From the NCBI GenBank assembly GCA_001189075.1, contig LFCN01000006.1:169384-233383 (forward strand): DNA of 64,000 nt. Direction: 5' to 3'. Both the position numbers and the translations under genes were made by a program. This document shows positions 25,324 to 42,021 of this stretch, piece after piece. Every line of letters starts with the position of its first letter. The first letter of the stretch is position 1. This stretch comes from Parcubacteria bacterium C7867-004. Lineage in GTDB: Bacteria > Patescibacteriota > Minisyncoccia > Phycocordibacterales > Phycocordibacteraceae. The notes below the pieces were generated by a model. That model saw only the letters and a program-made list of their open reading frames with translations. It was not told the origin of the DNA and searched no databases.

Positions 25324-25854
25324 ATGAGCGAAGGACCAGGAAAATATTTCAATAAGGCACCGGTGCCTGAGAGACAGACGCAACAAGAATCTTCCGAGGG
25401 AGAGCGGACCAATCAGGCACTCGGGGAGTTTGCAGCAGCTTTTGGTTTAGATCAGGAAAGGGTCATTAAACACTTTGCGAGCCTGAGTTCAAGGAAAGGA
25501 CCCATGGAAGCAGTCGCTGATCTGTTTAGTGAGGCAGCGCATGTGCAGCATTATGGGCCTGCTGATGCTGGAAAGTATCAAAAGCTCGTTGTTGGGGCGC
25601 TCGGTCCCGGATACACCGCTCTGCTACCCACGCCAGGTCAAACGTTTGACCCAAACATTCACGAAGATACATCGACTGCCACTAAGCAGTGGGATCCGAA
25701 TACGCAGGCGGCATTTGTGCCAAAAATATTTAGTGTCATCTTGCCAGGCATCTCGGGCCCCGAAGGCAGTACGGTCAAAAGTTTGATCTCAACAAGTAGC
25801 AGTAGCTATAGTTTCCTTGCTCAAGAGAGATCCAATCGACGTAAGGCTGCTTAG
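25324..25854 (+). CDS. Hypothetical protein in a lower-GC islet
   Basis: 176 aa with no recognisable motif. Flanked by two near-identical palindromes. Confidence 0.4.
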   Translation: MSEGPGKYFNKAPVPERQTQQESSEGERTNQALGEFAAAFGLDQERVIKHFASLSSRKGPMEAVADLFSEAAHVQHYGPADAGKYQKLVVGALGPGYTALLPTPGQTFDPNIHEDTSTATKQWDPNTQAAFVPKIFSVILPGISGPEGSTVKSLISTSSSSYSFLAQERSNRRKAA

Positions 25855-25865
25855 TTTCGAAAGCA

Positions 25866-25908
25866 TGATAAGAGAAAACCGCCGAAAGGCGGTTTTCTCT
25901 TTATCATG
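25866..25908. terminator. Palindromic hairpin sharing the core of the 25211 hairpin
   Basis: atgataagagaaaaccgcc-gaaa-ggcggttttctctttatcat. Confidence 0.5.
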
Positions 25909-25982
25909 CTCCATGAGTTTTGTGTGGAGAGAAGGCTATCCACGAGACCGAGAATGCTACTATTCGTGTACGTATTTCTTTG

Positions 25983-27014
25983 ATGGGAAAAAGTATCTTT
26001 CTTAAGGGATCAAAGCAGCGACCCCGCGTTTCTTCGGAGTACCTGATCATTCCCAATAAATATTCTTTCCAGCTCATACAGAGCGTCAAGACACCGATCG
26101 CGACACCGGTCGCGCAGGAGGCGCATATCGCCGCTGCGGCTCCAGAACCTCTGGCGGCCGAAGCAGTTGCTCCGGTACTGGCTCAAGCGCCGCAGCAAGA
26201 GATTCCGAAAGTAACAGCCAAGCGCATCGAGCAAGAGCCGAAGACTGGCGTCGATGAAAGCAAGAGGCTCTTTCTCCGGCTTGCTGGGGTGGCGGGGCTC
26301 GGCGTGGTCGCGGCGACGGTGCTCCCCAAGAGCGCGCAGGCATATGTCATGGGAAGCTCGCCTACCTCAGGGGTCGTGGGGGTAAAGAACGCGGCCAATA
26401 CGCGTATCGATCCCGCTACAGAAGGTGGCAATCTCGCCTCAATAAAGACGAATACTGATCCGTTCAATGCCTCCGGAGCCGGCGGGTACGTGCGTCAGGA
26501 CTCCACCGGGACCATAGCGAAGGAAACCGGAGGGAATCTCGCGACCATCGCGGGGAAGGATTTCGCTACGCAGGCGACGCTCGCGGAGATCAAGGCGCAG
26601 ACCGACAAGTTCACCTTCAGTGGAAGCAACCTGCTCACATCGGGAGGCGGCGGAGGGGGAGGTGCGGTAACGGTCAACGACACGACCGATACGCAGATAA
26701 ACCCCGCGACCGACGACAGCGCGATGCTGCTGAGAAGGCTTGTGCGCCAAGTCGATTCGCTCGCTGTAGTCGACTCCGCGCAGCGCCAGAAGGTAACGAT
26801 CGATTCGATCACCGGTTCGCTCACGTTGAGCACCATTACGACGGTCGGTACGGTTACGGCTGTTACGACCGTATCGACGGTCACCACCGTCAGCACACTC
26901 ACGTCTGCAACCAACCTCGTTGCGCTCGGCGGCGTCGACGGTCGTTATCTACATATAGATACAGCGAGGAACATGTATGCTAACGGTATTCGCACGAATC
27001 TTCTGTTCTCCTAA
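25983..27014 (+). CDS. Membrane-anchored hypothetical protein with Tat-like signal-anchor and NLAxIKxxTDxF repeats
   Basis: KRLFLRLAGVAGLGVVAATVLPKSAQA hydrophobic segment about 95 aa from ATG 25983. Three repeats (NLASIKTNTDPF, NLATIAGKDF, TLAEIKAQTDKF), a poly-Gly stretch and a T/V-rich tail. The start is uncertain; the track gives 25920. Confidence 0.45.
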   Translation: MGKSIFLKGSKQRPRVSSEYLIIPNKYSFQLIQSVKTPIATPVAQEAHIAAAAPEPLAAEAVAPVLAQAPQQEIPKVTAKRIEQEPKTGVDESKRLFLRLAGVAGLGVVAATVLPKSAQAYVMGSSPTSGVVGVKNAANTRIDPATEGGNLASIKTNTDPFNASGAGGYVRQDSTGTIAKETGGNLATIAGKDFATQATLAEIKAQTDKFTFSGSNLLTSGGGGGGGAVTVNDTTDTQINPATDDSAMLLRRLVRQVDSLAVVDSAQRQKVTIDSITGSLTLSTITTVGTVTAVTTVSTVTTVSTLTSATNLVALGGVDGRYLHIDTARNMYANGIRTNLLFS

Positions 27015-27020
27015 TTTTGC

Positions 27021-29858
27021 ATGGCTGTTACCAACAATCTGAAGCCGCAAGTAGACCTCCCTGTCTGGGAGTGGTGCCGCTTTACGCCTACCGCAACTGT
27101 CGCCCTTTCAGGGATGGCCACAGCCGATGATGGTAGCGCTCGCTTTATCTATTACATCTCCGCTTCCTCGTTCTATCGATATGACACGTACGCCGATGCG
27201 TGGCAGCAGCTCGCGACTCCGAACACTGCTCCATTCGCGGCACTCTCGCTTAGGTATACCGGATTCCGTGGATACCACGGAAGGGTACTGAGTGCGGGCG
27301 CAACCAGCGTGCAGATCGGTGGACTCCGTGGAGCAACGCTCAACGGGAAGACCATAAAGATACTTAGTGGTCCAGGAATAGGCCAGGAGCGCGTACTCAC
27401 GTTCACTGGAGAGACCATCCACGATATGGGTGTGATCACGGCGACGACGACGCTCACGCTTGCTGATTCCACGAAGAAGTGGAAGTTCAATCAGTGGTCG
27501 GGATACGTCGTCGGTATCACGTTCGGCACGGACGCGACCCAATACAAGAAGATCCTCTATAACGATGCAACCACGCTGTATATCAGTGACGCGAACCTCC
27601 AGCCCCACGATCCCTGGAATAACCAGCCGTTCGCTGCGATAGCGCCGTATGCGCTCCCGGTCACGACCGCCGGTTCGCAAGCGCACTTCCAGATTATTTC
27701 CCAGACGTATTCGGTTGATGCGTGGACTGTACAGCCCGACTACCGTTCGAATTACACTACCAATACCGGCGGCGTATACCTATTCTCCGGCTCTAACTCC
27801 GCACCCTTTTTCACGCTCCAGTACTACGACATCATTCATGACTCGTGGCAGACCAAGACCTGTAACCAGGCACTGCTCGCCGCGACGCTCAGTACCGACT
27901 GTACGTTCGAGCGCATGGCCAAGACCGGTACCGCATTCCTCTCCTCCACGGCGACCGCAGGCGCGGCCCGTACGCTCACCGACTCCGTACAGACGATGAC
28001 CGTCGATCGGTATGCGAACTATCGCGTGCTCATAACGGGAGGAACTGGCATCGGCCAGAGCCGCAGGATCATCTGCAACACTGCGACCGTTTTCACGGTG
28101 AACAAGGCGTGGGACACGAATCCGGACGCCACTTCGACCTATGAGATATGGGGAGACTATGACAAGGCGTTCTTCTCCGGTCATGCTGGAGCAGCGATGC
28201 TTCAGTATTCACCTTCAAACGATTTCTGGATGCAGGGTGCCAGCTTCGATGACGGTGTGGTCGCGAACATCGGCGTGAAGATGAGCGGATGGGAAGCACT
28301 CGGTGTGACTACCGGCGCAAGGATCGCCGCGGGCGTGACAGCAGTGAATGCGACCCCGACTGCGGGAGGTACGGGATATTTGGTGGGTGACATCCTGACG
28401 TGTTCGGTGGGCGGTACGGCAGCCCGCGTCATCGTTACAGCCATAGCGCCGACTGGCATCGTGAGTACTATCGAGCTCGTCGCGGCGGGTACCGGCACGG
28501 GCTTTACGACCGGCACCGGTAAGGCGACGACTGGCGGCACCGGCTCCGGCTGCACCATCGAGATAACCTCAGTCGGCGCTACGTGTCTTGTCACTACCGC
28601 TTCCGCAAACTGGTTCAAGACCGGAGACTCAGTAACATTCTCCGGATGTTCTGACAGCGCCTATAACGTCGCACACACCATTCTCGGCGCGGGTTCCACT
28701 ACAACCTTTGATGTCGCGACCTCAGCGGCAGGTTCCATGGCCGCTTCGAACTCGCAGTCGACCACCGTAATCGTCGATGCGTCGAAGAGCTGGACCACGA
28801 ATGAGCATGTCGGAAAGCTCGTACATCTCTCGGTCGCAGGCACTGCTCCTACTGCGCAGATCCGATGGATAACCGCCAATACCGCGACCACACTTACAGT
28901 CGCGACCATAGTCGCGGGAGTGAACGGTACCTCGAAGTACGCTATCTATGATTCGAAAGTGTTCGGTACGGATAATCAGTTCAAGCCCGCCAACCAGCAG
29001 AACTGGGGTCATGCGTCCGGCGGCTCGACCACGACGCTCATCGACGCATCGAAGAGCTGGGTTGTGAATGCCTGGGCAGGGTACAAGCTCCGTATAGAAT
29101 CAGGAACAGGTTTTGCAACCGGCATAATCTCTATCACCTCGAACACAGCGACGACGCTCACCTATACCACCCAGGGATTCACGCCGGACGCGACGACACA
29201 CTACGAGATTGCCGACAGCTGGGGACTCATGACGGCGGCATCGACCACCACCGTAACCGAGACCACGACCAAGAACTGGACAACGAACATGTGGGCAGGA
29301 AAGAGGATTCGCATCACGGGCGGTACCTCGCCGGGGCAGGAGGTAGCGATAACATCGAACACCGCAACCGTCATAACGATGGCAACGGTAACGCTCCCTG
29401 ATACCACCTCTACCTATGCGATACTCGGTGCTCCAGCACGCGGTGCGGGTACTCAGCTTATATGGATATGGGGGAATTCAGACGCAACAACGAAAGGGAG
29501 GTTGATGCTTTCGCCACGAGGCGGCGCTTCGAACACGTTCGATCTCTATGACATACCGACCGCACGGTGGGTGTACGGCTATTTCATATCTCCCCAAGCC
29601 GAGACGTTCACGACAGGATCCATGTATGCGTATGACGGGGAGAATACCGTGTATCTCCAGAAAGACGCGACCGGAAGGGTGTTCGCGTACAATGTATCGA
29701 CCAATGCGGTCAGTGCGCTCGGTACGATCCCGTACGGTCATTCGACCGCTATCATCGGGAACCGAATGGAGATAGTCGAGACCACGGATGGTCTCAAGTA
29801 CCTCTACATGATGCGTCATACGGGATCCGAGATGTGGCGCATGCTCATCTTCTTTTAA
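27021..29858 (+). CDS. 945-aa repeat protein with five copies of a roughly 45-aa module
   Basis: Recurrent (T/L)(A/I/V)D(A/S)(S/T)K(K/S)W(T/K)(T/V)N…W(A/S)G…(I/L)…G(T/G)(G/A)…GQ…I…SNTATT(L/V)T(V/Y) blocks at about aa 145, 310, 600, 675 and 755. No signal peptide. Confidence 0.55.
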   Translation: MAVTNNLKPQVDLPVWEWCRFTPTATVALSGMATADDGSARFIYYISASSFYRYDTYADAWQQLATPNTAPFAALSLRYTGFRGYHGRVLSAGATSVQIGGLRGATLNGKTIKILSGPGIGQERVLTFTGETIHDMGVITATTTLTLADSTKKWKFNQWSGYVVGITFGTDATQYKKILYNDATTLYISDANLQPHDPWNNQPFAAIAPYALPVTTAGSQAHFQIISQTYSVDAWTVQPDYRSNYTTNTGGVYLFSGSNSAPFFTLQYYDIIHDSWQTKTCNQALLAATLSTDCTFERMAKTGTAFLSSTATAGAARTLTDSVQTMTVDRYANYRVLITGGTGIGQSRRIICNTATVFTVNKAWDTNPDATSTYEIWGDYDKAFFSGHAGAAMLQYSPSNDFWMQGASFDDGVVANIGVKMSGWEALGVTTGARIAAGVTAVNATPTAGGTGYLVGDILTCSVGGTAARVIVTAIAPTGIVSTIELVAAGTGTGFTTGTGKATTGGTGSGCTIEITSVGATCLVTTASANWFKTGDSVTFSGCSDSAYNVAHTILGAGSTTTFDVATSAAGSMAASNSQSTTVIVDASKSWTTNEHVGKLVHLSVAGTAPTAQIRWITANTATTLTVATIVAGVNGTSKYAIYDSKVFGTDNQFKPANQQNWGHASGGSTTTLIDASKSWVVNAWAGYKLRIESGTGFATGIISITSNTATTLTYTTQGFTPDATTHYEIADSWGLMTAASTTTVTETTTKNWTTNMWAGKRIRITGGTSPGQEVAITSNTATVITMATVTLPDTTSTYAILGAPARGAGTQLIWIWGNSDATTKGRLMLSPRGGASNTFDLYDIPTARWVYGYFISPQAETFTTGSMYAYDGENTVYLQKDATGRVFAYNVSTNAVSALGTIPYGHSTAIIGNRMEIVETTDGLKYLYMMRHTGSEMWRMLIFF

Positions 29859-29860
29859 TT

Positions 29861-30721
29861 ATGAATATTGATTACCTCACGCAGCTGCTCACGAACCGCC
29901 TCGCAGCCCTCGCGCTCTCCAAAGATCAGGCGTTCCAATCGGGCGACCTTGAGCGCATCAACCTGCTTGATGTGGAGATGGCAGAAGTAGAGAACACCCT
30001 CTCCCAGCTGCGCCTGCTCTCCAATATCACCATCGCGGCGGCTGTCGCGAACACTACTCCTGCGCAGATAGTCTCGACGGGACTCGATGCCGTTCAGAAC
30101 ATTGTTCAGGGACCTTCGGCGGGTGCCGTTATCAACGGCTACGATATCTCCGCGTATGCGACCGATCCGCTCTACGAGCAGAAAGTGCAGGGTATTCTCG
30201 ACGCGATGCCGGCCTTCGTTACCGCCGAAGATATCGATACCTATGTGCAGGAAGCGGCTCCTGGAAGTCCGGTGACCGGCGCGATGATACTTGCCGCTGC
30301 TTCTGAGAACTTGGTCGACTCCCGCCTCATGATGGCGATCATGCGTAACGATTCGCAATTTGGTACGCAGGGCGTCGGCGCGAGGACCAATAACCCGGGT
30401 AACGTCGGAAATACGGGCACTTCAGAGCAGATGTATCCTTCCTGGGACGAAGGCGTGCGTGCGGGCGCCGAGTGGCTCAGCCGTCATCGCGCGGTAGCTC
30501 CCGTTGCACAAGAGATCGTCATCGAGCCGGTTCCCGAACCAGCACCTACTCCCGCGCCTAAAAAGACCCGGAAGCTCAATATCAAGGTAGAGGAGGATCC
30601 CCGCGTAGATCCCATACCTCCTGTCGAGACCCCTATAGACATCGTTCCGGTTGAAGAGGTGCCGCAAGCGACCACTACCCCGGCCCTTCCTGAAGACCCG
30701 GCGACCACCACCCCCTCGTAG
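29861..30721 (+). CDS. Hypothetical protein with a Pro-rich C-terminal tail
   Basis: Start moved to ATG 29861, immediately after the upstream stop. Internal RTNNPGNVGNTG…YPSWDEGVRAGAEWL segment and a C-terminal PEPAPTPAP…PVEEVP low-complexity tail. Confidence 0.45.
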   Translation: MNIDYLTQLLTNRLAALALSKDQAFQSGDLERINLLDVEMAEVENTLSQLRLLSNITIAAAVANTTPAQIVSTGLDAVQNIVQGPSAGAVINGYDISAYATDPLYEQKVQGILDAMPAFVTAEDIDTYVQEAAPGSPVTGAMILAAASENLVDSRLMMAIMRNDSQFGTQGVGARTNNPGNVGNTGTSEQMYPSWDEGVRAGAEWLSRHRAVAPVAQEIVIEPVPEPAPTPAPKKTRKLNIKVEEDPRVDPIPPVETPIDIVPVEEVPQATTTPALPEDPATTTPS

Positions 30722-30743
30722 TCCGGCGTGAGATACTGGGGCC

Positions 30744-31475
30744 ATGGAGGAGATCGAGGTCTACATCGCTAAGTACGGGCATTACCTGGAGGAGATACGG
30801 AAGCGGATTTACCGCATCGTTATTGTCTATATCGTCGCGTTCCTCGCGGGACTCTTCTCGACGAATCTGTTCGTGCGCTTCTTCATAACGTATCTCAATG
30901 TCGATAACGTGACGATCGTCGCGACTTCGCCGTTTCAGCTGCTTGATCTGGCAATGAGTATCGGGTTCTTCCTTGCGACCATAGTAACCATCCCGTTCGC
31001 CATCCAACAGATCTATTCGTTCCTCAGTGGGGGACTGCTGCCGCACGAGCGAAGGATATTCTTCACACTTATCCCGCTCTCGGTGCTGCTGTTCCTCGTC
31101 GGTTTCACCTACGGGTTCGGGGTCATGTACTACGCGGTAGAGGTCATTGCGCAAGTGAACGTGAGCTTCGGGATAACTAACCTCTGGAACGTCAGCCATT
31201 TCATATCCCAGATGCTGATCACGGCGGCCCTGCTCGGCATGATATTCGAGTTCCCAATCATGCTCACGCTCCTCATACGCATCGGCCTCTTCCCGGTGTC
31301 CTTTTTACGCCGTAAAAGGCGCATTGCTATGGCCGCGATCTTCGTTTTTGTTGCTTTACTTCCCCCAACCGACGGGCTATCCTTTATGATAATGTCCTTG
31401 CCGCTCGTGGGGATATATGAGCTCACTATCGTGCTCAATTCCTTCTACAAGCGGAAAGAACCCTTAGAAACATAA
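30744..31475 (+). CDS. tatC: Twin-arginine translocase subunit TatC
   Basis: HLEEIRKRIYRIVIVYIVAF N-terminal signature with six TM helices. Confidence 0.85.
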   Translation: MEEIEVYIAKYGHYLEEIRKRIYRIVIVYIVAFLAGLFSTNLFVRFFITYLNVDNVTIVATSPFQLLDLAMSIGFFLATIVTIPFAIQQIYSFLSGGLLPHERRIFFTLIPLSVLLFLVGFTYGFGVMYYAVEVIAQVNVSFGITNLWNVSHFISQMLITAALLGMIFEFPIMLTLLIRIGLFPVSFLRRKRRIAMAAIFVFVALLPPTDGLSFMIMSLPLVGIYELTIVLNSFYKRKEPLET

Positions 31476-31487
31476 CTCTCGTCGCCT

Positions 31488-31655
31488 ATGTTCGGACTCG
31501 GATCAAATGAACTGATAATCATCGCAGTCATACTCGTGCTCCTCTTTGGTGCGACCCGCATCCCGGCGCTCACTAAGGGCATCGCGCAGGCAATTCGCGA
31601 GCTTCGCGGCGCGTTCAAGGACGAAGAGTTCAGCGACGAGAAGAAAAAGTCTTAG
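31488..31655 (+). CDS. tatA: Twin-arginine translocase subunit TatA/E
   Basis: MFGLGSNELIIIAVILVLLFGATRIP… followed by an amphipathic helix. 55 aa, below the ORF-track length cutoff. Confidence 0.7.
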   Translation: MFGLGSNELIIIAVILVLLFGATRIPALTKGIAQAIRELRGAFKDEEFSDEKKKS

Positions 31656-31789
31656 TCTCTCCTCCGAGGGACGGATTTTTGTATGAGATATCCGCCAGGA
31701 ATGGCGGGTATAGAGCGCTTCATGAACGTGCGATGATGCTAGAATCATATAGGTAGCGGCTTTCAGTAGGGAAGTGGTGGCGACGGTGC

Positions 31790-34700
31790 ATGAACCTATA
31801 TTTTTCGCATACAAAAACGAGCCGCTCTGCCGCACTATCGGTATTCTTCCCTGTGCTCTTCGCGGCGCTCATGGTTCCCGTCGGCGTCTTTGCCGACTAT
31901 CAGGAATACCTGCCGGGTACGGCAGTGAATATAGGGGAGTTCGTGTATGACGATGATTTCCAGGCGACCACCACGGCCAACTGCATCGTCACGGTCTATG
32001 ACCCGACGGGGGCGGTAGCGGTGAATGCGGCTGCGATGACGGCGACGGCCAACAGCTGGTATTCCTATTCGTTCACGCCGGACTCGATCGAAGGCACCTG
32101 GCCTTCAGAAATGTCCTGTGGTTCAGCGCTTTCAGGCGATCTCGTAAAAGGGGACAAGACATTCGTCGTAACGTCGAATATCGTCTCTTCTTCATCAGTA
32201 GCGGCCCTCGTGAATGCGAACACGAACACGGTAGTGGCATCCGCCAGCTCCTCGCTTGCGTCCACGCTTCCGGCGTCGATATGGAGCTACTCGGGGCGCA
32301 CGCTCACCTCGTTCGGTACGTTAGTTGCCGATATCTGGGCGAACGGCACGCGATCGCTCACCTCGGGCGTCGCTATTGCGAATGATATCTGGGCTGCAAC
32401 GACGCGCACTCTTACCGGAGCCGGACTCGACTCAGGCTCACTCGCCACGCAGTCTGACGTAACGACTGCTTCCTCATCTCTTGGAAGCGCCATAACGACT
32501 GAGACTGCGGCAGTTAATGCCAATACCAACGCAACGGTCGCAACCGCCTCAAGCTCGATTGCCGCAGTCGTAAACGCGAACACAAACACGCAGGTCCTCA
32601 CTGCTTCCACGTCACTCGGCTCGACGCTTGCTTCCATCGGCTCGAGCATAACGAATATCCCGACGGCGGTCTGGGCAGCAGGTACTCGTACACTCACGGG
32701 CTTTGGAACACTCGCGTCTGACGTATGGGTAAATGGAACACGCACCCTTACCGGAGCCGGGCTCGACTCGGGATCACTCGCAACGCAGTCTGACGTAACG
32801 ACCGCCTCTTCATCGCTCGGAAGCGCGATTGCGGCTGAGACATTGGCGGTCAACACCAACACAAATACGCAAGTCTTAACTGCTTCCACATCGCTTGGTT
32901 CAACCCTCACTTCGATTACCGGCTCGATTGCAGGTATACCTGCTGCTGTCTGGGCCGCGGGCACTCGCAGTCTAACGACATTCGGCACGCTCGCCTCTGA
33001 CGTATGGGCAAGCGGCACGAGGACGCTCACGGGCGCAGGGCTCTCGTCCGGCTCGCTCGCTACTCAGACTGACGTGACGACTGCTTCCTCGTCGCTCGGG
33101 AGCGCTATTACCGCCGAAACCGCCGCAGTTAACGCGAACACTAATGCAACCGTCCTTGCTGCGAGTACGTCACTTGCATCCAATATCAATGCAAACACGA
33201 ATCTTCAAGTCTTAACCGCTTCAACATCTCTAGGTTCAACCCTCACCTCAATTGCAGGTTCCATCACCGGTATTCCGGCGGCAGTCTGGGCCGCGGGATC
33301 TCGTACTCTCACCGGCTTCGGCACACTCGCATCTGATGTATGGTCTGTCGGTACCCGTACTCTTACTGGCGCAGGACTTTCGTCCGGTTCGCTTGCAACG
33401 CTTAGCGACGTAACAACCGCGTCTTCATCGCTCGGCTCTGCTATCACGGTTGAAACCGCTGCCGTGAATGCGAATACGAACTCTGCTATCGGTACGGCAA
33501 GTTCTTCGCTGGCCGCGGTTATTAACGCGAACACAAACACGCAGGTCCTCACGGCCTCCACCTCGCTCGGCTCAACACTCGCTTCGATCGGCTCCAGCAT
33601 AACGAATATTCCAACTGCGGTATGGGCGGCAGGAACTCGAAGCCTCACGACCTTTGGCACACTCGCATCTGATGTCTGGTCTGTCGGTACACGCACGCTC
33701 ACCGGCGCAGGTCTCTCCTCCGGCTCGCTCGCTACTCAGACTGACGTGACAACCGCGTCTTCCTCACTCGGAAGCGCTATTACGGCTGGCACCGTTGCGG
33801 TTAATGCGAACACGAATGCAACGGTTGCCAATGCATCAAGCTCGATCGCGGCTGTAGTGAACGCGAACACCAACACGCAGGTCCTCACCGCTTCATCCTC
33901 GCTCGGCGCATCCATAGCGGCTGTTCCACTCTCCGTCTGGAACGTCGCATCCTCTTCGCTCAATGTCGCCGGATCGATTGGAAAGCAACTCGCGCTTAAT
34001 GTTGACGCGGCGATTTCGAGTGTCACGGGAGGTGTCGGATCTCTCACTGCTGCCGACGTATGGTCATACGCGACGCGCACACTCACCGGAGCCGGCCTCG
34101 ACTCGGGATCACTCGCGACGCAGTCTGATGTAACCACCGCGTCCTCTTCGATCGCCGCCGTTGTTAACGGCAACACGAATACGCAGGTCGCAGCCGGAAC
34201 CGCGAGCGTGAACGGAACGATCGGAACCGCCTCGAGCTCGATTGCGGCTGTAGTGAACGCGAACACCAACACGCAGGTCCTCACCGCTTCTACCTCGATT
34301 GGCTCGACACTCTCTTCGATCGGTTCGAGCATAACGAATATCCCGACCGCGGTATGGGCAGCGGGCACCCGTACTCTCACCGGCTTCGGCACACTCGCAT
34401 CTGATGTATGGTCTGTCGGTACCCGCACCCTTACTGGCGCAGGACTATCAAGCGGTTCGCTCGCTACGCTTAGCGACGTAACGACCGCTTCGTCTTCGCT
34501 TGGAAGTGCTATTACGGCTGGAACCGCGAGCGTGAACGCGAACACGAATGCAACGGTGCTTACTGCGTCTTCTTCACTCGCAACGGTGATCAATGCGAAC
34601 ACCAACACGCAGGTTCTGACTGCTTCAACCTCTATCGGTTCGACCCTCACCTCGATTACCGGCTCAATCGCCGGTATTCCAGCGGCAGTCTGGGCCGCGG

Positions 34701-36031
34701 GATCTCGTACCCTCACGGGCTTTGGAACCCTCGCGTCTGACGTGTGGGCGAGCGGTACCAGGACGCTCACGGGAGCTGGTCTCTCCAGTGGCTCGCTCGC
34801 TACGCTTAGCGACGTAACAACCGCCTCTTCATCCGTTGCCGCTTCCGTGAATGCGAATACCAACACGCAGGTTGCCGCAGGGACCGCGAGCGTGAACAGC
34901 AATACCAACGCGGTCGTGCTCGCCGCCTCGACATCGGTCGCGGCATCGGTGAACGCGAATACCAATACCGTCATCACTACCGCGTCTAGCTCGCTCGCCG
35001 CTTCTATAGCCGCGATTCCTACCAACGTATGGGCTGCCGGTACGCGCAGTCTGACGACCTTTGGAACGCTCGCGACCGATGTCTGGAGTGCAGCGACGCG
35101 TACCCTCACGTCGCTTACGCTCTCATCCTCGTCGCCGTGGACCGTGACGATGTCCGACTTCGGCACTATCTCCGCGGGAGACAACTATCTCGCAACGGTG
35201 AACACGCTCTATAACGGAACGCTCACGGATTCGGCGAACCTGCCGACCATCACGGTCTACGATCCGAGCCGCAACGTTATAGTTTCTTCAGCCGCGATGA
35301 CGCGCACAGGAGTCGGTAGCTATACCTACTCCTACACGACGAGCGTGAGCGCCGAGGGCGGCGTATGGGAGAGCGCCATCTCAGCGACGGTTGAGACCGG
35401 AAAGACTCTTCCGGGCAACGACTACTGGAACGTCACGACCTCACCGCCGCAGGTCTTCATAAACAGCGTGACCTCGACCGTCGTGCCGAACATCACTGCG
35501 AGCGTCCGCGTTACGAACGAGGGTGACGTCGCCTACGAGTACCCTTACGAGTGGTGCGTCGTTGCTGATATCAGCAACTCCTGCGGCGGGGGAGACGATA
35601 CGTACTACGCATCGGCTGCGAAGCTGATCGCACCCGGAGAGAACTTCGATACAGTGCTGACCGCGACCGTGCCGGTAACTGGGGTCTACTACTTTAAGGT
35701 TGCCGTCTACTACGGCACCGAAGTCTCGCGTGCATCCCGCCTCTTTACCGCGACCGCAGCGGGAACCCCTGGTACCGGTGGGGGAGGTGGTGGAGGAGGA
35801 GGTGGCGGAGGTGGCGGAGGCGATGATCCGGCTCCGGCAGCAGGCTCCTGCGAGGATCGCGTGCGCGCGGACATCAACTGCGATGGCCGAGTGAACGGCG
35901 TCGACTTCTCGATGCTGCTCGCATTCTGGAAGACCTCTGCTCCGTACCGAAATCCGCGCGTCGACCTCAACCGGGACGCGAAGGTGGATTCCGTCGACTT
36001 CTCGATACTCCTCTATAGCTGGACCCGATAA
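31790..36031 (+). CDS. Giant secreted tandem-repeat surface protein with a C-terminal dockerin-like module
   Basis: Signal peptide MNLYF…VPVGVFADYQ. About ten repeats of 94-112 aa. A (Gly)17 linker. C-terminal DINCDGRVNGVDFSMLLAFWKT and DLNRDAKVDSVDFSILLYSWTR duplicated Ca-loop/helix segments, as in type-I dockerins. Confidence 0.7.
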   Translation: MNLYFSHTKTSRSAALSVFFPVLFAALMVPVGVFADYQEYLPGTAVNIGEFVYDDDFQATTTANCIVTVYDPTGAVAVNAAAMTATANSWYSYSFTPDSIEGTWPSEMSCGSALSGDLVKGDKTFVVTSNIVSSSSVAALVNANTNTVVASASSSLASTLPASIWSYSGRTLTSFGTLVADIWANGTRSLTSGVAIANDIWAATTRTLTGAGLDSGSLATQSDVTTASSSLGSAITTETAAVNANTNATVATASSSIAAVVNANTNTQVLTASTSLGSTLASIGSSITNIPTAVWAAGTRTLTGFGTLASDVWVNGTRTLTGAGLDSGSLATQSDVTTASSSLGSAIAAETLAVNTNTNTQVLTASTSLGSTLTSITGSIAGIPAAVWAAGTRSLTTFGTLASDVWASGTRTLTGAGLSSGSLATQTDVTTASSSLGSAITAETAAVNANTNATVLAASTSLASNINANTNLQVLTASTSLGSTLTSIAGSITGIPAAVWAAGSRTLTGFGTLASDVWSVGTRTLTGAGLSSGSLATLSDVTTASSSLGSAITVETAAVNANTNSAIGTASSSLAAVINANTNTQVLTASTSLGSTLASIGSSITNIPTAVWAAGTRSLTTFGTLASDVWSVGTRTLTGAGLSSGSLATQTDVTTASSSLGSAITAGTVAVNANTNATVANASSSIAAVVNANTNTQVLTASSSLGASIAAVPLSVWNVASSSLNVAGSIGKQLALNVDAAISSVTGGVGSLTAADVWSYATRTLTGAGLDSGSLATQSDVTTASSSIAAVVNGNTNTQVAAGTASVNGTIGTASSSIAAVVNANTNTQVLTASTSIGSTLSSIGSSITNIPTAVWAAGTRTLTGFGTLASDVWSVGTRTLTGAGLSSGSLATLSDVTTASSSLGSAITAGTASVNANTNATVLTASSSLATVINANTNTQVLTASTSIGSTLTSITGSIAGIPAAVWAAGSRTLTGFGTLASDVWASGTRTLTGAGLSSGSLATLSDVTTASSSVAASVNANTNTQVAAGTASVNSNTNAVVLAASTSVAASVNANTNTVITTASSSLAASIAAIPTNVWAAGTRSLTTFGTLATDVWSAATRTLTSLTLSSSSPWTVTMSDFGTISAGDNYLATVNTLYNGTLTDSANLPTITVYDPSRNVIVSSAAMTRTGVGSYTYSYTTSVSAEGGVWESAISATVETGKTLPGNDYWNVTTSPPQVFINSVTSTVVPNITASVRVTNEGDVAYEYPYEWCVVADISNSCGGGDDTYYASAAKLIAPGENFDTVLTATVPVTGVYYFKVAVYYGTEVSRASRLFTATAAGTPGTGGGGGGGGGGGGGGGDDPAPAAGSCEDRVRADINCDGRVNGVDFSMLLAFWKTSAPYRNPRVDLNRDAKVDSVDFSILLYSWTR
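32400..35110 (+). repeat. In-frame tandem DNA repeats (282-336 bp units, about 10 copies, highly similar)
   Basis: Recurring blocks such as gcgaacac(c/a)aacacgcaggtcctcac…tctgacgt(a/g)ac(a/g)ac(c/t)gc. The encoded unit is TASSSLGSAI…AVNANTNTQVLTASTSLGSTL…IPAAVWAAGTRTLTGFGTLASDVW…GTRTLTGAGLSSGSLATQSDVT. Confidence 0.7.
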
Positions 36032-36033
36032 TC

Positions 36034-36891
36034 ATGAACACTATGACCCTCCGCGTACTCATCGTTCTCCTCGCTCTCTCGGTTCTCCCGCAGGGGGTCG
36101 GGGCCGCGGCATTCCTCGTGACTCCTGACGCGGCAACCGTTGGTCAGGAATTCGCGGCGACCATGAGCTTCGCTCCCCAGGGCGAGGCTGTGAATGCAGT
36201 CGAGGGGTCGCTCAAAATACCGGAGGGACTCAGCGTCGTTCGCGTAAGCACGGGAGGCTCAGCACTCGCGCTCTGGCCTGTGTCGCCTGCGTTCTCGCTC
36301 TCGGACCGGACGGTTACGTTCGTCGGAGGAAGTCCTGGCGCGGGACTGCCTGCCGATAGCTCCTCGCTTCTTTTCACGCTCTATCTCAAGGCAGCCGCAC
36401 CGGGAACGTATTCGATCGAGTCTTCCGCAGTGTCCGGTTTCAAAGCTGACGGCACCGGCGACCGTGTCGCTGTTGCCGTCGAGCCCGTCTCGGTCATCGT
36501 TGGTTCGGAAGCGGTCAAATCGACGGCGAAAGCTGATCACGCTGCACCGAACTCGCTCACCGTCGCACTCGGAAGCGATACATCGCTCTTCGATGGTGCG
36601 CCGTTCGTCTCCTTCTTCGCGAGCGACGCGGGAAGCGGCATAGCCGCGTATCAAGCGAAGGAAGGATGGTTCGGCGCGTATAAGCCGGTAGATCGGTACT
36701 ACGTCCTGGCTGACGCAAGTGCCAAGCAGCCGGTATGGATACGCGCGATAGACGCGGAGGGCAACAAGCGTACGGTGCACGTGAAGGGAACCGGTGACAC
36801 GCTCTACTACGCCGGTCTCCTAGCTCTTCCGGTCCTGCTGCTTTTGCTCATCATCGCGTTTCTGGTTTACCGTTTCCGCCCGCGACCATAA
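36034..36891 (+). CDS. Membrane-anchored cohesin-like domain protein 1
   Basis: Signal peptide, then …FLVTPDAATVGQEFAATMSFAPQGEAVNAVEGSLKIPEGLSVVRVSTGGS…, a cohesin-like pattern. C-terminal TM anchor LLALPVLLLLLIIAFLVY. Confidence 0.5.
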   Translation: MNTMTLRVLIVLLALSVLPQGVGAAAFLVTPDAATVGQEFAATMSFAPQGEAVNAVEGSLKIPEGLSVVRVSTGGSALALWPVSPAFSLSDRTVTFVGGSPGAGLPADSSSLLFTLYLKAAAPGTYSIESSAVSGFKADGTGDRVAVAVEPVSVIVGSEAVKSTAKADHAAPNSLTVALGSDTSLFDGAPFVSFFASDAGSGIAAYQAKEGWFGAYKPVDRYYVLADASAKQPVWIRAIDAEGNKRTVHVKGTGDTLYYAGLLALPVLLLLLIIAFLVYRFRPRP

Positions 36892-38336
36892 TGAAAAGAT
36901 TCCTCATCTTCTTGCTCCTCGCTCTGTCGCTTCCCGCGACCTCGCATGCGGCAACGATGAGCCTCATTCCGTCCGATACTACGGTTGATACCGGGGATAT
37001 CGTCACGGTCCGTGTAGTGGTTAATCCGGGGGGCACGGCGGTGAACAATGCCGAAGCGGTAGTGAGGTTCCCGGCGGGTGTTCTCGAGGTTCTTTCTGTA
37101 AGCAAAGCTGGCTCGATGTTCCCGCTCTGGGTAGAGGATCCGAGCTTCTCGAACGGGGCGGGGACGGTGTCTTTTAACGGAGGCGTTCCGAACCCGGGCG
37201 TCTCGAGCGCGGGCACGGCGCTCTCGATAAGCTTTCATGCGGTTCGAGCAGGTACCGCGTCCTTGTCGCTTTCGGAAGCGGCAGTACGTGCGAACGACGG
37301 TCTCGGTACCGATGTCCTCACCGGCTCCTCAGGAACGCAGATCACGATCTTATCCGCTTCAGCGCCCGTTACTCCCACTACACCTGTACCGACTGCACCT
37401 GCTACTGGTACGGGAGCTGCGCCGGTGAGCGCAGGACCGATAGCGATCTCTTCGCCGACACACCCCGACTCGAATATCTGGTACGCAAATACCACCCCGT
37501 CCTTCACCTGGTCACTGCCGAAGGGGGCAACCGGCGTATCGCTCGGCATCGATCAATCGCCAGCAGCGGCACCTGGTGTCACCTACACCACCGCGATAAC
37601 CGAGAAGACCGTTGCATCGCTTGAAGACGGCACCTGGTACTTCCGCATGAAGTATCGCTCGGGAGGAGCCTGGAGCACGATAAGCTCCTACAAGGTTCAG
37701 ATTGATTCCAGTTTGCCTGAGATAACAAATCACACGGTCCTCTATGACGAGACAGAGCGCGCAGTTCTAATTGAGGTAGCGGGAACCGATTCAGGATCGG
37801 GCATTGAGCGGTACGATGTCTCGATAGACGGCGCTGAGCCGATCTCGGTCCCAGCGAGCAAGTTTGATGGAAAGTCGCAGTCTTTCCCGGTTCGCTCCTC
37901 CGGCATCCATAAAGTGACCATAACCGCGATAGATCACGCCGGGAACCGGGTGAGCGTCGAGAACTCCTTCTCGGTATCGCAATCGCTGAGCAATCAGCCG
38001 CTGTTCTTCATCGGCTCATTCGGCGTGAGTCTCCTGGCGGTGCTTCTTGCCATGAGTCTCTTCTCGATGATCTCGCTCATCGCGGCGCTCTTCGCCTGGT
38101 TCACGCTCATCTACTACCGCCATCGGAAGCATCCGACCGTTCCGGCGGTGCGTAAGGACATGCACGAGGGCTTCCTTAAGATTAAGTCGAATATGGAGAT
38201 AGATATCCGGGCGCTTGATAGGGCACGCATGAAGCGCGAGCTCTCGCGGGAGGAGGCGATGCTCTACCGCAGGCTAGTTGCCAACGTGTCTGCCCTCGAG
38301 CGTCATATGGACAGGATACTGGATGATATGGATTAG
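36891..38336 (+). CDS. Membrane-anchored cohesin-like domain protein 2 with Ig-like middle region and cytoplasmic tail
   Basis: Signal peptide. SLIPSDTTVDTGDIVTVRVVVNPGGTAVNNAEAVVRFPAGVLEVLSVSKAGSMFPLWVEDPSF…GTASLSL follows the cohesin beta-sandwich pattern. TM at about aa 375-400, then a charged cytoplasmic tail. Confidence 0.55.
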   Translation: MKRFLIFLLLALSLPATSHAATMSLIPSDTTVDTGDIVTVRVVVNPGGTAVNNAEAVVRFPAGVLEVLSVSKAGSMFPLWVEDPSFSNGAGTVSFNGGVPNPGVSSAGTALSISFHAVRAGTASLSLSEAAVRANDGLGTDVLTGSSGTQITILSASAPVTPTTPVPTAPATGTGAAPVSAGPIAISSPTHPDSNIWYANTTPSFTWSLPKGATGVSLGIDQSPAAAPGVTYTTAITEKTVASLEDGTWYFRMKYRSGGAWSTISSYKVQIDSSLPEITNHTVLYDETERAVLIEVAGTDSGSGIERYDVSIDGAEPISVPASKFDGKSQSFPVRSSGIHKVTITAIDHAGNRVSVENSFSVSQSLSNQPLFFIGSFGVSLLAVLLAMSLFSMISLIAALFAWFTLIYYRHRKHPTVPAVRKDMHEGFLKIKSNMEIDIRALDRARMKRELSREEAMLYRRLVANVSALERHMDRILDDMD

Positions 38337-38359
38337 GTTCTATCATCAATTACTCAAAA

Positions 38360-40342
38360 TTATTTGGCCACTCGGATTTTGATAGTTATTGTTGTGCCAG
38401 AATTTTGACCACACTCAGCAAATATAATTCCGTTGTGCAACTCTACAATTCGTTTGACTATTGCAAGTCCAATACCGGTTCCAGGAATATTCCGAGAAGC
38501 ATGATCTCCTCGATAAAATCTATCAAAGATGTAAGGTAAGTCAGTTGGGGCAATTCCTATCCCGCTGTCTATAATCGATAAAACTACAAAATCTGACTCG
38601 GTTCTCAATGAGAAGCCAATCTGTTTCGGCCCCTCTTCATTCATGTACTTCAGAGAATTGCTGGCAATATTAGTTATTGCCTCACGCATTCGTTTCCGGT
38701 CGCCATAAATATATATACCCGACTCAATCGCAAGGCCTACTTCTATTCCTCTGTTACCCGCGATGACCGTTATCTCCTCCGCAACTTCATGTGTAAGTTC
38801 TGAGAGGTTAAATAAATCGTTTACTTGATTTGCCTCGCTCTCTACTTGAGAAAGTGATAAGAGATCATAAATAAAAATCGAAAAGTTCTTCAACGATTGC
38901 TCGAAGGAACAAATGGTGCTATCTGTTCGAAGCCTAGAATCCATTCGGTCAAGTTTTGTCTGAAGTATCGCCAGTGGAGTCTGCAGATTGTGGGATAGAT
39001 CAGTAATTATTTGATGCTCCCTGATTCGTGATTCTTTGAGTTCTTGAGTTCTTTCTTCAACCTTTTGCTCTAATTCCGCTGCATGTTTTTCAACATCCAT
39101 AAAAAGTTGAACGCGAGAGAGACATGTTGCTGCCTGGTTTGTAAATGTAAGTAAAAGCTGTAAATCGCGTTTTTCATATGGATCACCCGATAATTTATTT
39201 CCAACGAATATACGACCGATGGTTTGTCCATCAGAGTTAATTGGCGCTGACATAGTTCCAACTGAGTCACTGTCCAGTTGTTCAACATCATTTTTGCAAC
39301 TGGATTCGCGAGTAAGTAGGACTCTGACGGATTGAGAATGAAATATTAGTGCAAGTTTTAATTCCACCTTATCAATAAATTCTTCAAATGTTCTAGCCGT
39401 GTAAAGAACCTCACTGAGTGAGTGCATTGCCTCCGCATAATCGTACGTGTCTTTAAAGAAAATCTTATCTGTGAGCTTTCGGAAACTTTTTTCGATTACA
39501 GGAATGCTGAAAGCACTGACCACTACAGCAATGCATGACGCAAAAAGTATGTTTATGTCTGATGAGTAAGTGACAAAGGTCTCTAGAACTACTATTATTG
39601 TGATATAAAATCCCACCACTAGGGTTATAAGTAGACTATAGGTTATTCCATTTCGAACCGCATTTTTAATGTCAAGTAACTGATGACGGGTGGTTGCGTA
39701 AACACAGCCCATTGCAAAAAAGATTGTACAAAGTGGGCCCAGTGAGTAGAACCTATACTCTCCAGTAAGAGGCAAGGCCACTGTAAATAATAGTGTGCCT
39801 GCTCCTGAGAGAATAAGTCCTGAAAGGGCATACCATAGTTGCATTCTTCTCGTATAGCCAGTTTTGTTTGCCAGCGCGTAAGCGAGACGCGCAATTCCAT
39901 AAAGTAAATTACTTAAGGAATATATAAAAACATAAGTATAAATTACACCAGGAACTATTTCTGCTGGACGCACGATTGGGAAAGACATCTCCAGTATTGC
40001 GTGTGGTGAGAATGACGCTGCAGCAAGGGCTATCCCTGGAAGCGCGTATAATAAGAATCTACGCCAAGGTGGAAAACGACCGTCAATAAGTAAGTCAGTG
40101 AGTACAAATTGCACTATAACTTTAAGCATGGCGACCATAAGTGCCAGGCTGCAGCTAATGTATAGGCAACTTGTTGTATAGCAGACATCTGCAATTACAT
40201 TACTTCCAATCCATATCGTCACCAGGACCAAGTAAGTTCCAAGAGTTACTTCAAGCGCCGATCGTCTTCGTATAAATAGAATTATGGATGCAACAGCGAA
40301 TATGACTGAGACGAATGCTGCTGCATAGGTTATTTCAAACAT
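38360..40342 (-). CDS. Sensor histidine kinase with a large polytopic membrane sensor domain
   Basis: About nine N-terminal TM helices. H-box ITDLSHNLQTPLAILQ. HATPase_c N/G boxes (…NSLKYM…IIDSGIGI…GTGIGLAIVKRIVELH…). Lies in a markedly AT-rich segment. Confidence 0.8.
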   Translation of the reverse strand: MFEITYAAAFVSVIFAVASIILFIRRRSALEVTLGTYLVLVTIWIGSNVIADVCYTTSCLYISCSLALMVAMLKVIVQFVLTDLLIDGRFPPWRRFLLYALPGIALAAASFSPHAILEMSFPIVRPAEIVPGVIYTYVFIYSLSNLLYGIARLAYALANKTGYTRRMQLWYALSGLILSGAGTLLFTVALPLTGEYRFYSLGPLCTIFFAMGCVYATTRHQLLDIKNAVRNGITYSLLITLVVGFYITIIVVLETFVTYSSDINILFASCIAVVVSAFSIPVIEKSFRKLTDKIFFKDTYDYAEAMHSLSEVLYTARTFEEFIDKVELKLALIFHSQSVRVLLTRESSCKNDVEQLDSDSVGTMSAPINSDGQTIGRIFVGNKLSGDPYEKRDLQLLLTFTNQAATCLSRVQLFMDVEKHAAELEQKVEERTQELKESRIREHQIITDLSHNLQTPLAILQTKLDRMDSRLRTDSTICSFEQSLKNFSIFIYDLLSLSQVESEANQVNDLFNLSELTHEVAEEITVIAGNRGIEVGLAIESGIYIYGDRKRMREAITNIASNSLKYMNEEGPKQIGFSLRTESDFVVLSIIDSGIGIAPTDLPYIFDRFYRGDHASRNIPGTGIGLAIVKRIVELHNGIIFAECGQNSGTTITIKIRVAK

Positions 40343-40397
40343 AACTAGTGAATGGTAAATCAGGAATGATGCTACTAATATTTCTTTTAATTCAGAC

Positions 40398-41066
40398 CTA
40401 TACTCCCATTCGATAGCCTCTTCCTGGCACAGTCTGTATCAAACGATCTTTACTCATGTCATCAAGTTTTTTTCGTAACGAGAGGATATGGGATTCAATT
40501 GTATTTGAGAAAATATCAACACTCATGTCCCATACGTGCTCAAGTATCATTCCACGAGAAAGTACAATACCCTCATTACGCATTAGGTACTGTAAAAGCA
40601 TAAATTCCTTTCGTGTAAGATAGACACGTTTATCGCCTTTACGTACGCTCCCGCTCCTGGCATCCAAGAAAATGTCGTCAACGATTAACTCGTCTTCCTC
40701 TAACCCAGCAGGCCGACGAAGCAATGCGCGAACTCGTGCAAGTAGTTCCTCAAGGATAAAAGGTTTTGTTAAGTAATCATCGGCGCCTGCATTAAGTAAT
40801 GTGACCTTGTCATTTATGCCCGTTTTTACTGAAACCACTAATATTGGTAAATTTTTTCCTACGGCTCGTATATCCTTACAGACTTGGATACCTTCTTTTT
40901 TAGGTAATAGATTGTCTAAAATAATAAGGTCGTAGTCATTTGTGCGAGCGAGGTATGATCCGATCTCTCCATCTACTGCGACATCGACTGCAAAAAATTC
41001 TGCAATTAAAGCTTCTTTAAGGAAGCATGCAATCTTAGGTTCGTCTTCTACTACTAGTATTCTCAT
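40398..41066 (-). CDS. OmpR/PhoB-family response regulator
   Basis: Receiver MRILVVEDEP…LIILD…K and a C-terminal winged-helix (…GRGYRMG). Upstream of, and probably co-transcribed with, the kinase. Confidence 0.85.
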   Translation of the reverse strand: MRILVVEDEPKIACFLKEALIAEFFAVDVAVDGEIGSYLARTNDYDLIILDNLLPKKEGIQVCKDIRAVGKNLPILVVSVKTGINDKVTLLNAGADDYLTKPFILEELLARVRALLRRPAGLEEDELIVDDIFLDARSGSVRKGDKRVYLTRKEFMLLQYLMRNEGIVLSRGMILEHVWDMSVDIFSNTIESHILSLRKKLDDMSKDRLIQTVPGRGYRMGV

Positions 41067-41269
41067 ATTTAGTAGAGATTTTATATTTTCATTAACTGCT
41101 CAAATGGTAGCAACCTCGGCAGCTCTTTTTGAGTAATTGATAAAATATGCTGTGAATAGCCCGCTTATTTTTCCTATATCTTTTCTCCAGGATTATTTTA
41201 TATTTATCTATCTTCTATATTTGCGTAACAAACTTGCCCTTACTACTTTCTGGCACTACAGTATGCAGT

Positions 41270-41974
41270 ATGCAAGCCGTAATAGTCGCCGCCGGAGAAG
41301 GGAAGCGCATGCAGCCGCTTACTTTCGAGCGCCCAAAGCCTCTTATTGAGGTGAATGGAAAACCCCTTATCGAGCACATCATTGATGCCTTGCCACCAGA
41401 AATTGACGAGATAATCATCGTCATCGGGTACAAGGGGCAAATGATCAAAGACCATCTCGGAGACTCTTACAAGGGTCGGAAAATAGTCTATGTCCATCAG
41501 TGGATGGCAGCTGGCACGGCGCACGCACTCTCTATGGCCCGCCCGTTTCTCAAGGGAAAGTTCCTCTTCATGTATGCGGATGACATCCATGGAGCCGAGG
41601 CGTTGGCGGAGACCATTAAGCATCCGTATTCGATACTCGCCGCTCCGCACGAGGATCCGTCGAAGTTCGGCGTTATAGAGAAGAATGAGGACGGGACGCT
41701 TTTGAGGATGGTTGAGAAGCCTGTGAATCCGGCAACCAACCTTGTTAATACTGGAGGCATCATGCTCGATGAGCGAATATTCGACTATCCGGCGCCGCGC
41801 CATGAGACCGGGGAGTACTACATAACCGAGCCTATCGAGAGCCTCTCAAAGGATCACCCTATTATGGTTATCGAGCAGCCGCTCTGGATACCGGTTGGCT
41901 ATCCGGATGATATAGCGAAAGCGGAGGAAATCCTGAAAGCTCGGGCGCTATCCCAAGATTCAGATCTTATCTAA
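41270..41974 (+). CDS. Sugar-phosphate nucleotidyltransferase (NTP_transferase family)
   Basis: MQAVIVAAGEGKRMQPLTFERPKPLIEV N-terminal signature G-x-G-x-R-x(n)-K. The start is corrected from 41234 to ATG 41270. Confidence 0.7.
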   Translation: MQAVIVAAGEGKRMQPLTFERPKPLIEVNGKPLIEHIIDALPPEIDEIIIVIGYKGQMIKDHLGDSYKGRKIVYVHQWMAAGTAHALSMARPFLKGKFLFMYADDIHGAEALAETIKHPYSILAAPHEDPSKFGVIEKNEDGTLLRMVEKPVNPATNLVNTGGIMLDERIFDYPAPRHETGEYYITEPIESLSKDHPIMVIEQPLWIPVGYPDDIAKAEEILKARALSQDSDLI

Positions 41975-42021
41975 GAAATCTCCAGCATCCCATCATCCAT
42001 ATAGAGCTACCTTAGCTCTAT

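Follow-up and report, generated by a model that had tools for sequence, protein, structure and literature searches.

Three adjacent forward-strand genes of Parcubacteria bacterium C7867-004 encode a repetitive, dockerin-bearing fibre protein and two membrane proteins with predicted cohesin domains. They lie in a 64,000-nucleotide (nt) stretch of contig LFCN01000006.1 (positions 169,384 to 233,383), which we call the window and in whose coordinates all positions are given. The fibre gene (31790..36031, +), defined from the open reading frame (ORF) listing and its translation, specifies 1413 amino acids (aa): a Sec-type signal peptide, an N-terminal head domain, a long tandem array, two body domains, a poly-Gly linker and a C-terminal dockerin. 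An earlier note made from the sequence alone had labelled this a giant adhesin gene, a term that a 1413-aa product does not warrant. Cohesin anchor 1 (36034..36891, +; 285 aa) begins 2 nt past the stop codon of the dockerin gene, and its own end overlaps the start of cohesin anchor 2 (36891..38336, +; 481 aa) in an ATGA start/stop junction.

Eight complete in-frame units fill positions 32411-35104, phased on the motif LTGAGL. They are U1 (32411-32746, 336 nt), U2 (32747-33025, 279 nt), U3 (33026-33361, 336 nt), U4 (33362-33697, 336 nt), U5 (33698-34081, 384 nt), U6 (34082-34429, 348 nt), U7 (34430-34765, 336 nt) and U8 (34766-35104, 339 nt), and every length is divisible by 3. A direct-repeat search returned repeat families with start-to-start spacings of 336, 279, 336, 336, 384, 348 and 336 nt. 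U2 is missing one 19-codon sub-repeat, U5 carries a 23-codon insert, and U6 and U8 have 4-8 additional codons. Each unit (93-128 aa) combines a predicted helical segment of ~54-77 residues with a ~40-residue connector containing two invariant WxxxxRxLT motifs. Motif scanning and translation also place a degenerate lead-in unit ahead of the array (32195..32410, +), made of one VNANTN helix segment and three WxxxxRxLT motifs. Repeat families and unit alignment bear out the earlier note's in-frame tandem repeats at 32400-35110 and its short indel-defined subtypes, seen here in U2, U5, U6 and U8. Its tally of about ten units of 282-336 bp gives way to eight of 279-384 nt.

The units are ancient, kept as protein by purifying selection with their synonymous sites scrambled. 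Pairwise identity between aligned units is 59-76% in DNA (mean 68%) and 61-88% in protein (mean 76%), third codon positions are 40% identical, and self-BLAST segments of the array reach 66-78%. Across the 28 unit pairs, Nei-Gojobori counts give a mean pS of 0.66 and a mean pN of 0.18. We conclude that the units are old and under purifying selection because dS is at least 1 in all 28 pairs, several of them saturated, and dN/dS is 0.04-0.29. No young unit copies exist in this genome.

Near-identity at the DNA level, from which the earlier note had argued for RecA-mediated or slipped-strand length variation and for assembly collapse with undercounted copies, is absent from the array. Run over 25-45 kb, Tandem Repeats Finder (TRF) picks out the Gly tract alone, with no array of long period. 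Exact direct repeats of at least 30 nt number just three within the gene (56, 47 and 32 nt), and long near-identical tracts are lacking. Homologous recombination requires tens of identical bases, and its efficiency drops steeply with divergence. Frequent RecA or slippage variation is thus unlikely at this array. Collapse in assembly is likewise unlikely because all 57-mers of 32300-35200 are unique within the window. An array of such ancient units, scrambled in their synonymous positions, is probably stable, perhaps apart from low-frequency variants, and can be assembled without ambiguity.

Two other deposits of the locus carry the same array. An identical 1413-aa protein is present in NCBI GCA_002398375.1 (contig DGYM01000008.1, a UBA genome bin; locus L001) and in a contig of JGI metagenome 3300001199 (locus L002). 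Each is 99.995% identical to the window across 20.9 kb, and all share the eight-unit array, with one synonymous single-nucleotide polymorphism in the JGI contig at 33463, within the array. All three assemblies were probably built from one body of Hanford groundwater data. The 481-aa neighbour protein matches AB199_01275 of Parcubacteria bacterium C7867-004 at 100% identity; that genome bin, from Hanford groundwater, has 0.78 Mb and a guanine-plus-cytosine (GC) content of 56% (PMC4508563). The paper on this genome goes no further than generic repeat-rich 'adhesin-like' large proteins (PMC4508563). When metagenome and genome collections were searched for same-species contigs with other copy numbers, the closest relatives were only 72-75% identical.

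The two matching contigs part from the window at one place. L001 follows it at 99.995% from 25135 onward and is unrelated to the left of the tRNA-Met gene (25137-25208; L001 1-1964), and the JGI contig ends exactly at that gene. The break may mark a junction made in assembly or binning, or else a rearrangement between strains at this tRNA.

The fibre protein ends in a type-I dockerin. Pfam PF00404 matches aa 1360-1407 (35867..36010, +) at 28.8 bits against a cut-off of 22.9. Its two Ca-binding-loop segments, DINCDGRVNGVDFSML (35870-35917, +) and DLNRDAKVDSVDFSIL (35963-36010, +), stand 31 residues apart, and both fit the tandem ~22-residue pattern of an EF-hand-like Ca-binding loop followed by a helix. 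The duplication remains visible in DNA as an internal 58-nt repeat (family D15). A motif scan of the 64-kb window found no dockerin-like segment besides these two. A PDB sequence search with the whole protein was set aside as spurious, since all 216 of its 216 matches were single-chain variable fragment (Gly4Ser) linkers aligned to the poly-Gly run.

That run forms a linker just ahead of the dockerin. The codon listing shows 15 consecutive GGN codons (35777..35821, +), comprising GGT five times, GGA six times, GGC three times and GGG once, or 16 codons if a GGT preceding an ACC is counted. TRF rows on the run have periods of 12 and 15 with 81-84% matches. Homologues carry 3 to 17 glycines (G3-G17) at the equivalent position, and no run in the 38 closest protein-search homologues exceeds the 15 seen here. 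The (GGN)17 tract that the earlier note placed at 35.77-35.82 kb is thus a genuine Gly-codon run with an overstated length. It is a conserved in-frame linker of mixed codons, not an on/off switch.

The remaining domains frame the array on either side. A Sec-type signal peptide occupies aa 1-35 (31790..31894, +), with a ...GVFA/DY cleavage site read off the sequence. The following N-terminal immunoglobulin (Ig)-like, MG2-like head domain (31895..32194, +) is assigned from a sub-threshold Pfam match, paralogy and conservation in homologues. MG2 (PF01835) scores 26.7 bits at aa 33-104 against a cut-off of 32.8, and precomputed PF01835 matches occur in most homologues, graded 'faint' wherever a strength is given. 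The head is paralogous to the first post-stalk domain (39% identity over 66 aa, E 2e-7). Two body domains follow the array (35105..35776, +), an MG2-like Ig domain with a weak MG2 match and then a Cys-containing beta domain, and both are kept in all homologues. Export through Tat was considered, with tatA and tatC adjacent in every locus, and rejected for this protein: RR occurs in the n-region of just 3 of 38 signal peptides from the family.

Both downstream proteins are predicted to carry a cohesin domain on a single-pass membrane anchor. Anchor 1 consists of a signal peptide, a cohesin-like N-domain, an Ig-like domain and a C-terminal transmembrane (TM) helix; anchor 2 has a signal peptide, a cohesin N-domain, an Ig-like/OmpL47-type domain, a TM helix and a tail. 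The two are paralogous, with a common N-domain of ~150 aa and basic residues after the C-terminal TM helix. Anchor 2 alone continues past that helix into a conserved, charged, helical cytoplasmic tail of ~70 residues (37990-38336), which suggests an intracellular partner or a signalling role.

Fold comparison and profile searches converge on the cohesin assignment. The AlphaFold2 (AF2) model of the anchor 2 N-domain reaches a predicted local distance difference test score (pLDDT) of 91.4. In a Foldseek search of this model against PDB, the top 50 matches were all cohesins (E 4e-10 to 6e-5, template-modelling scores 0.6-0.8), including the non-cellulosomal Archaeoglobus cohesin 2xdh and the anchoring cohesins OlpA, OlpC and ScaE. 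The predicted N-domain is accordingly a nine-stranded beta-sandwich (jelly-roll) of the cohesin fold. PDB sequence searches with each neighbour protein singly returned nothing significant, and a 12-sequence profile (A2) found R. flavefaciens cohesins among PDB sequences at E 1e-4. Aligned with hhalign to cohesin profile A4, anchor 1 matched at 97.9% probability and E 4e-13. The orthologue in locus L005 scores 33.8 bits against Pfam Cohesin (PF00963; cut-off 24.1), and precomputed PF00963 matches are present in many anchor homologues. Predicted fold, profiles and orthologues are the basis on which the window anchors are called cohesins.

Genetic linkage joins dockerin to cohesin across the family. 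A cohesin-like ORF lies directly 3' of the dockerin gene in 30 of 30 related loci, a count that takes in every fetched locus with 600 nt or more of downstream sequence and includes 23 that stood outside profile building. The order tatC, tatA, fibre, cohesin, cohesin is repeated in six distant Patescibacteria loci (L003-L008), in two of which the block with tatC and tatA is inverted. This linkage supports physical pairing of dockerin and cohesin in the module, which probably occurs.

The array itself is probably a folded, oligomeric helical stalk. The repeat unit matched nothing in Pfam, NCBIfam, PHROGs or the PDB sequences. AF2 applied to 2.4 units places one helix of ~68 residues in each unit at pLDDT 64-76. 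From this low-confidence repeat model we used helix placement alone, backed by a periodicity test. Hydrophobic residues in the helical segments recur every 3.72 residues with a power of 7.6, against 2.16+-0.47 in 300 shuffles (maximum 3.70). This periodicity is hendecad- or pentadecad-like, not heptad. The helical segments also contain 19 [IVL]xxN[TS] motifs, with VxxNTxx repeated, and the alignment columns for W, R, L, T and N do not vary among homologues that are 41-66% identical. Polar coiled-coil cores with Asn at position d are documented in trimeric autotransporter stalks, and predictors are known to take coiled coils with such cores for disordered sequence (PMC13580157). The earlier note's reading of an exposed stalk fits the setting of the array within a secreted surface protein, for which a stalk is the most plausible role.

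Stalk length varies widely across a family found mostly in Patescibacteria. The fibre protein has 88 homologues, mostly from this group and of the same architecture, the best of them only 51% identical. A profile of 2.4 units, searched against 1.84 billion proteins, retrieved 1080 representative proteins at E <= 1e-3, a number that falls to 298 at E <= 1e-10 and to 30 at E <= 1e-30; by these matches the unit appears to be a small, uncurated family whose named homologues come from Patescibacteria. WxxxxRxLT motifs number 0-31 across the family, in proteins of 334-2339 aa. The window protein has 18, more than the 3-12 seen in those of the 38 closest protein-search homologues that measure about 780-1260 aa; the longest of the 38 have up to 28. 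Its closest relatives, 72-75% identical in the C-terminal part, carry 18 motifs (L009) and 31 motifs with a G17 linker (L029). Inside the array, L003 and L007, whose flanks are 93% and 99.6% identical, are 106 aa or about one unit apart in length, and the shift in identity there suggests a recombination breakpoint. Repeat number is therefore variable, as the earlier note had expected, at the level of the family (0-31 motifs) and constant at this array across the three assemblies. Unit gain and loss occurs over evolutionary time.

True relatives are annotated as 'dockerin type I domain-containing protein' or 'hypothetical protein' in Patescibacteria, for example P0006 from Ca. Taylorbacteria and P0010 from Ca. 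Doudnabacteria. They share with the window protein the signal peptide, the MG2-like domain, WxxxxRxLT/VNANTN repeats, both body domains, the poly-Gly run and the dockerin, and their genes are likewise followed by a cohesin pair. In homologues P0006, P0017 and P0031 the stalk is interrupted by another short repeat ('KTKTDTIxWxDVTGI', ~12-15 aa) and is therefore a mosaic of at least two repeat types.

Some relatives carry recently duplicated DNA or broken contigs in the array. Recent duplications were seen in L004 (7520-8670; 451 nt, 99.8%), L006 (279 nt, 93.5%), L013 (254 nt, 94.5%) and L017 (326 nt, 96.0%), the loci to which a RecA or recombination model could apply. Contigs end within the array in 13 of 28 related loci and in the P0209 contig, several extending 8-38 kb on the other side; the loci listed with such ends are L010, L012-L017, L019, L024, L025, L030, L031, L033 and L037. 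These breaks are fragmentation, not collapse, and do not apply to the window. Since contigs break in the array, family members are probably under-represented or truncated in databases.

We favour, with somewhat better than even confidence, the view that the array is the length-setting stalk of a Patescibacteria-specific surface fibre plugged by its dockerin into two membrane-anchored cohesins, and not a hyper-variable DNA array. Starting from direct observations (repeat anatomy and divergence, the dockerin, the neighbours' cohesin fold, gene linkage and copy-number differences among relatives), we infer a helical oligomeric stalk, physical dockerin-cohesin pairing, the orientation and length of the fibre, and an adhesive or host-contact role. 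Sec would export the fibre protein, and its C-terminal type-I dockerin would dock into the cohesins of the two single-pass membrane proteins. Docking would tether the fibre to the cell and leave the N-terminal Ig-like head at its far end, and the Gly15 run would act as a flexible hinge ahead of the dockerin. Unit number would then set the reach of the head, at roughly 10 nm per helix and on the order of 80-90 nm in all, and would shift by duplication and unequal recombination over evolutionary time.

Several results weigh against this picture. The window anchors themselves miss the Pfam Cohesin threshold, the 481-aa protein scoring 17.3 against 24.1 and the 285-aa protein giving no match. The AF2 repeat model has a mean pLDDT of 52 and a predicted template-modelling score of 0.26 from an 11-sequence alignment, with connectors below 50 and unmodelled, and the Ala/Ser/Thr/Asn compositional bias of the repeats could inflate helix prediction. 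The three agreeing assemblies, probably built from the same data, are uninformative on population variation and bear on assembly robustness only. Some of the homologues that are short yet 'complete' (334-480 aa) may result from ORFs that were split or mis-called.

A broader proposal takes in the lifestyle of the host lineage. The three-gene module sits in a conserved cluster of about nine genes that includes tatA and tatC. It is possible, and we put it forward tentatively, that the module is an undescribed, widespread Patescibacteria surface appendage with which these ultrasmall bacteria both reach their host cells and hold on to them, its stalk length tuned per lineage to the host envelope.

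The same observations can be arranged into other accounts of the array. Were it a contingency locus, near-identical repeats would recombine through RecA or slip often, yielding population length variants and a copy number undercounted by collapse. Its in-frame design suits this account, as unit gain or loss leaves the protein intact, and the three in-frame exact repeats of 32-56 nt could allow rare deletions of 396, 672 and 1068 nt. Unit number does change between close relatives, fresh duplications exist elsewhere in the family, and many related contigs break within the array. The account nevertheless looks very improbable for this locus: the units are 59-76% identical in DNA with saturated synonymous sites, TRF reports no array, 57-mers are all unique in the window, three assemblies concur, and a dN/dS of at most 0.29 per unit favours long-term retention over turnover. 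An origin as a prophage or tailocin tail-fibre-like protein, with the neighbourhood beside tRNA-Met an integrated mobile element, is the most remote of the readings considered. The cluster does start just past tRNA-Met, where one related assembly diverges and another ends, an upstream gene has a weak glucosaminidase (lysozyme-like) match, and fibrous repeats look like tail fibres, a resemblance only. However, neither the fibre protein nor any of four upstream proteins tested matches PHROGs, GC content equals that of the genome, and a Sec signal peptide and dockerin are present. The cluster with tatC, tatA and cohesins is, moreover, syntenic in distant Patescibacteria despite unrelated flanks. 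We rejected the phage-fibre reading on a tblastn search of two units against 50,697 phage records, which gave no match.

Two further accounts keep the protein on the cell surface and dispute what the array does there. It might be a disordered, probably glycosylated, Ser/Thr-rich (mucin-like) spacer that would still tether head to dockerin. The Ala/Ser/Thr/Asn/Gly-rich composition fits such a spacer, as do the mean pLDDT of 52 with connectors below 50 and the lack of a Pfam, NCBIfam or PDB sequence match for the unit. Yet the 3.72-residue periodicity lies far above shuffled controls, the W, R, L, T and N columns stay invariant across homologues 41-66% identical, a dN/dS of 0.04-0.29 would be unusual for such a spacer, and polar-core coiled coils get mis-predicted as disordered (PMC13580157); we consider disorder unlikely. 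The fibre could alternatively be a structural strut or spacer of an S-layer-like surface, its cohesins serving envelope architecture and not host contact. The module is near-universal and syntenic in the family beside the housekeeping-like tatA/tatC, and no recognisable ligand-binding or enzymatic domain was found in the fibre protein, but a stalk length of 0-31 motifs among relatives is a better fit to an exposed adaptive appendage, leaving the strut distinctly unlikely.

As a proposed dockerin-docked fibre, the module most resembles non-cellulosomal cohesin-dockerin pairs and anchoring scaffoldins; the top fold matches include such cohesins from Archaeoglobus fulgidus (2xdh), C. thermocellum (OlpA/OlpC) and R. 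flavefaciens (ScaE). In both, a displayed protein bears a two-segment type-I dockerin and a cell-bound partner bears a single cohesin, here of predicted beta-sandwich fold, an arrangement that would give this module, too, surface display of the non-covalent plug-in kind. The cargo here, however, would be a repetitive fibre and not an enzyme, and the anchors are predicted single-pass TM proteins, unlike SLH- or sortase-anchored scaffoldins. Further differences are the two paralogous anchors, one with a conserved cytoplasmic tail, and the reduced-genome Parcubacterium that hosts them. No multi-cohesin scaffoldin of the cellulosome kind is present, each anchor having one cohesin. The module contains no glycoside hydrolase or carbohydrate-binding module (CBM) domain, and the fibre, which is not an enzyme, is the window's sole dockerin protein. 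Single-cohesin anchors and the absence of enzymes and CBM from the module rule out a cellulosome.

The stalk has likenesses of its own. Like trimeric autotransporter stalks, it would be repetitive, length-variable and placed between head and membrane anchor, with helices alternating with short connectors, a non-heptad (hendecad/pentadecad-like) periodicity and a VxxNTxx pattern resembling polar Asn-at-d layers. Anchoring here is through dockerin and cohesin, the envelope type of the organism differs, and the stalk likeness comes without detected sequence homology. Pfam and NCBIfam give no match in the fibre protein for a YadA-type beta-barrel anchor or for head or neck domains, and the dockerin C-terminus together with this missing anchor match rules out a trimeric autotransporter adhesin. 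Streptococcal alpha C/Rib and staphylococcal/enterococcal Bap/Esp proteins similarly have in-frame units of ~100 aa in an exposed protein, their number differing among relatives. In alpha C/Rib- and Bap/Esp-type arrays, near-identical DNA drives frequent deletion, expansion and assembly collapse; the units here, unlike those, are 59-76% identical in DNA with synonymous sites saturated. Measured by the near-identical units and long exact tracts of a contingency locus, this array falls short, with a longest exact repeat of 56 nt and no TRF array.

Two consequences follow for the handling of such loci: the assembled copy number is trustworthy, and contingency-locus status should not be assumed. 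A conserved protein with saturated synonymous sites also means that a tandem array can persist for long without DNA homogenisation. Diverged protein repeats are themselves ordinary and common; the moderately interesting part is the conserved dockerin-fibre/cohesin-anchor module in Patescibacteria. In the literature searched, neither this operon nor any dockerin-cohesin pair in Parcubacteria is described. A transposon-sequencing study of Saccharibacteria lists an essential dockerin-domain protein, without further analysis (PMC10633639).

The dockerin fibre and its cohesin anchor pair make a concrete candidate for a surface-display or attachment device. Patescibacteria, also called the candidate phyla radiation (CPR), account for much of bacterial diversity, and their way of life seems to be attachment to host cells. 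To our knowledge, little has been learnt about the hardware with which they attach, type IV pili aside. If the proposal is true, a cohesin-dockerin system would here serve cell-cell attachment instead of enzyme display.

Upstream of the fibre gene lie tatC (30744-31475, +; Pfam TatC) and tatA (31488-31655, +), which adjoin the module as called genes in related loci L001, L003-L008 and L037. A 134-nt gap separates tatA from the fibre gene and holds a terminator-like hairpin with a T-run (31655..31682, +), found by a consensus scan in which such sites were as frequent as in shuffled sequence. The hairpin weakly suggests that fibre and cohesin genes may form their own transcription unit. A scan for sigma-70-like promoters over 30.6-38.5 kb found none, against 2.7 expected by chance.

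The wider upstream cluster (25324-31655) recurs beside the fibre gene in distant Patescibacteria (L003-L008, L037). Its genes encode proteins of ~175 aa, ~200-364 aa, ~720-945 aa, ~200-310 aa and ~60 aa, followed by tatC and tatA, and, these two apart, they have no Pfam, NCBIfam or PHROGs assignment. The product of ~720-945 aa is without a signal peptide and has internal W..N.W.G repeats; that of ~200-310 aa gives the weak glucosaminidase (lysozyme-like) match. A 364-aa ORF (25920-27014, +) contains an internal segment, KRLFLRLAGVAGLGVVAATVLPKSAQA, that resembles a Tat signal or membrane anchor, as well as its own G7 run, and might be a Tat substrate of the adjacent tatA/tatC.

GC content dips twice in the window, to 0.43-0.44 at 38000-42000 and to 0.39-0.44 at 60000-64000, against 0.55-0.61 elsewhere, and this low-GC DNA may have been horizontally acquired. 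The first dip spans a histidine kinase gene (38360-40342, -) and a response regulator gene (40398-41066, -).

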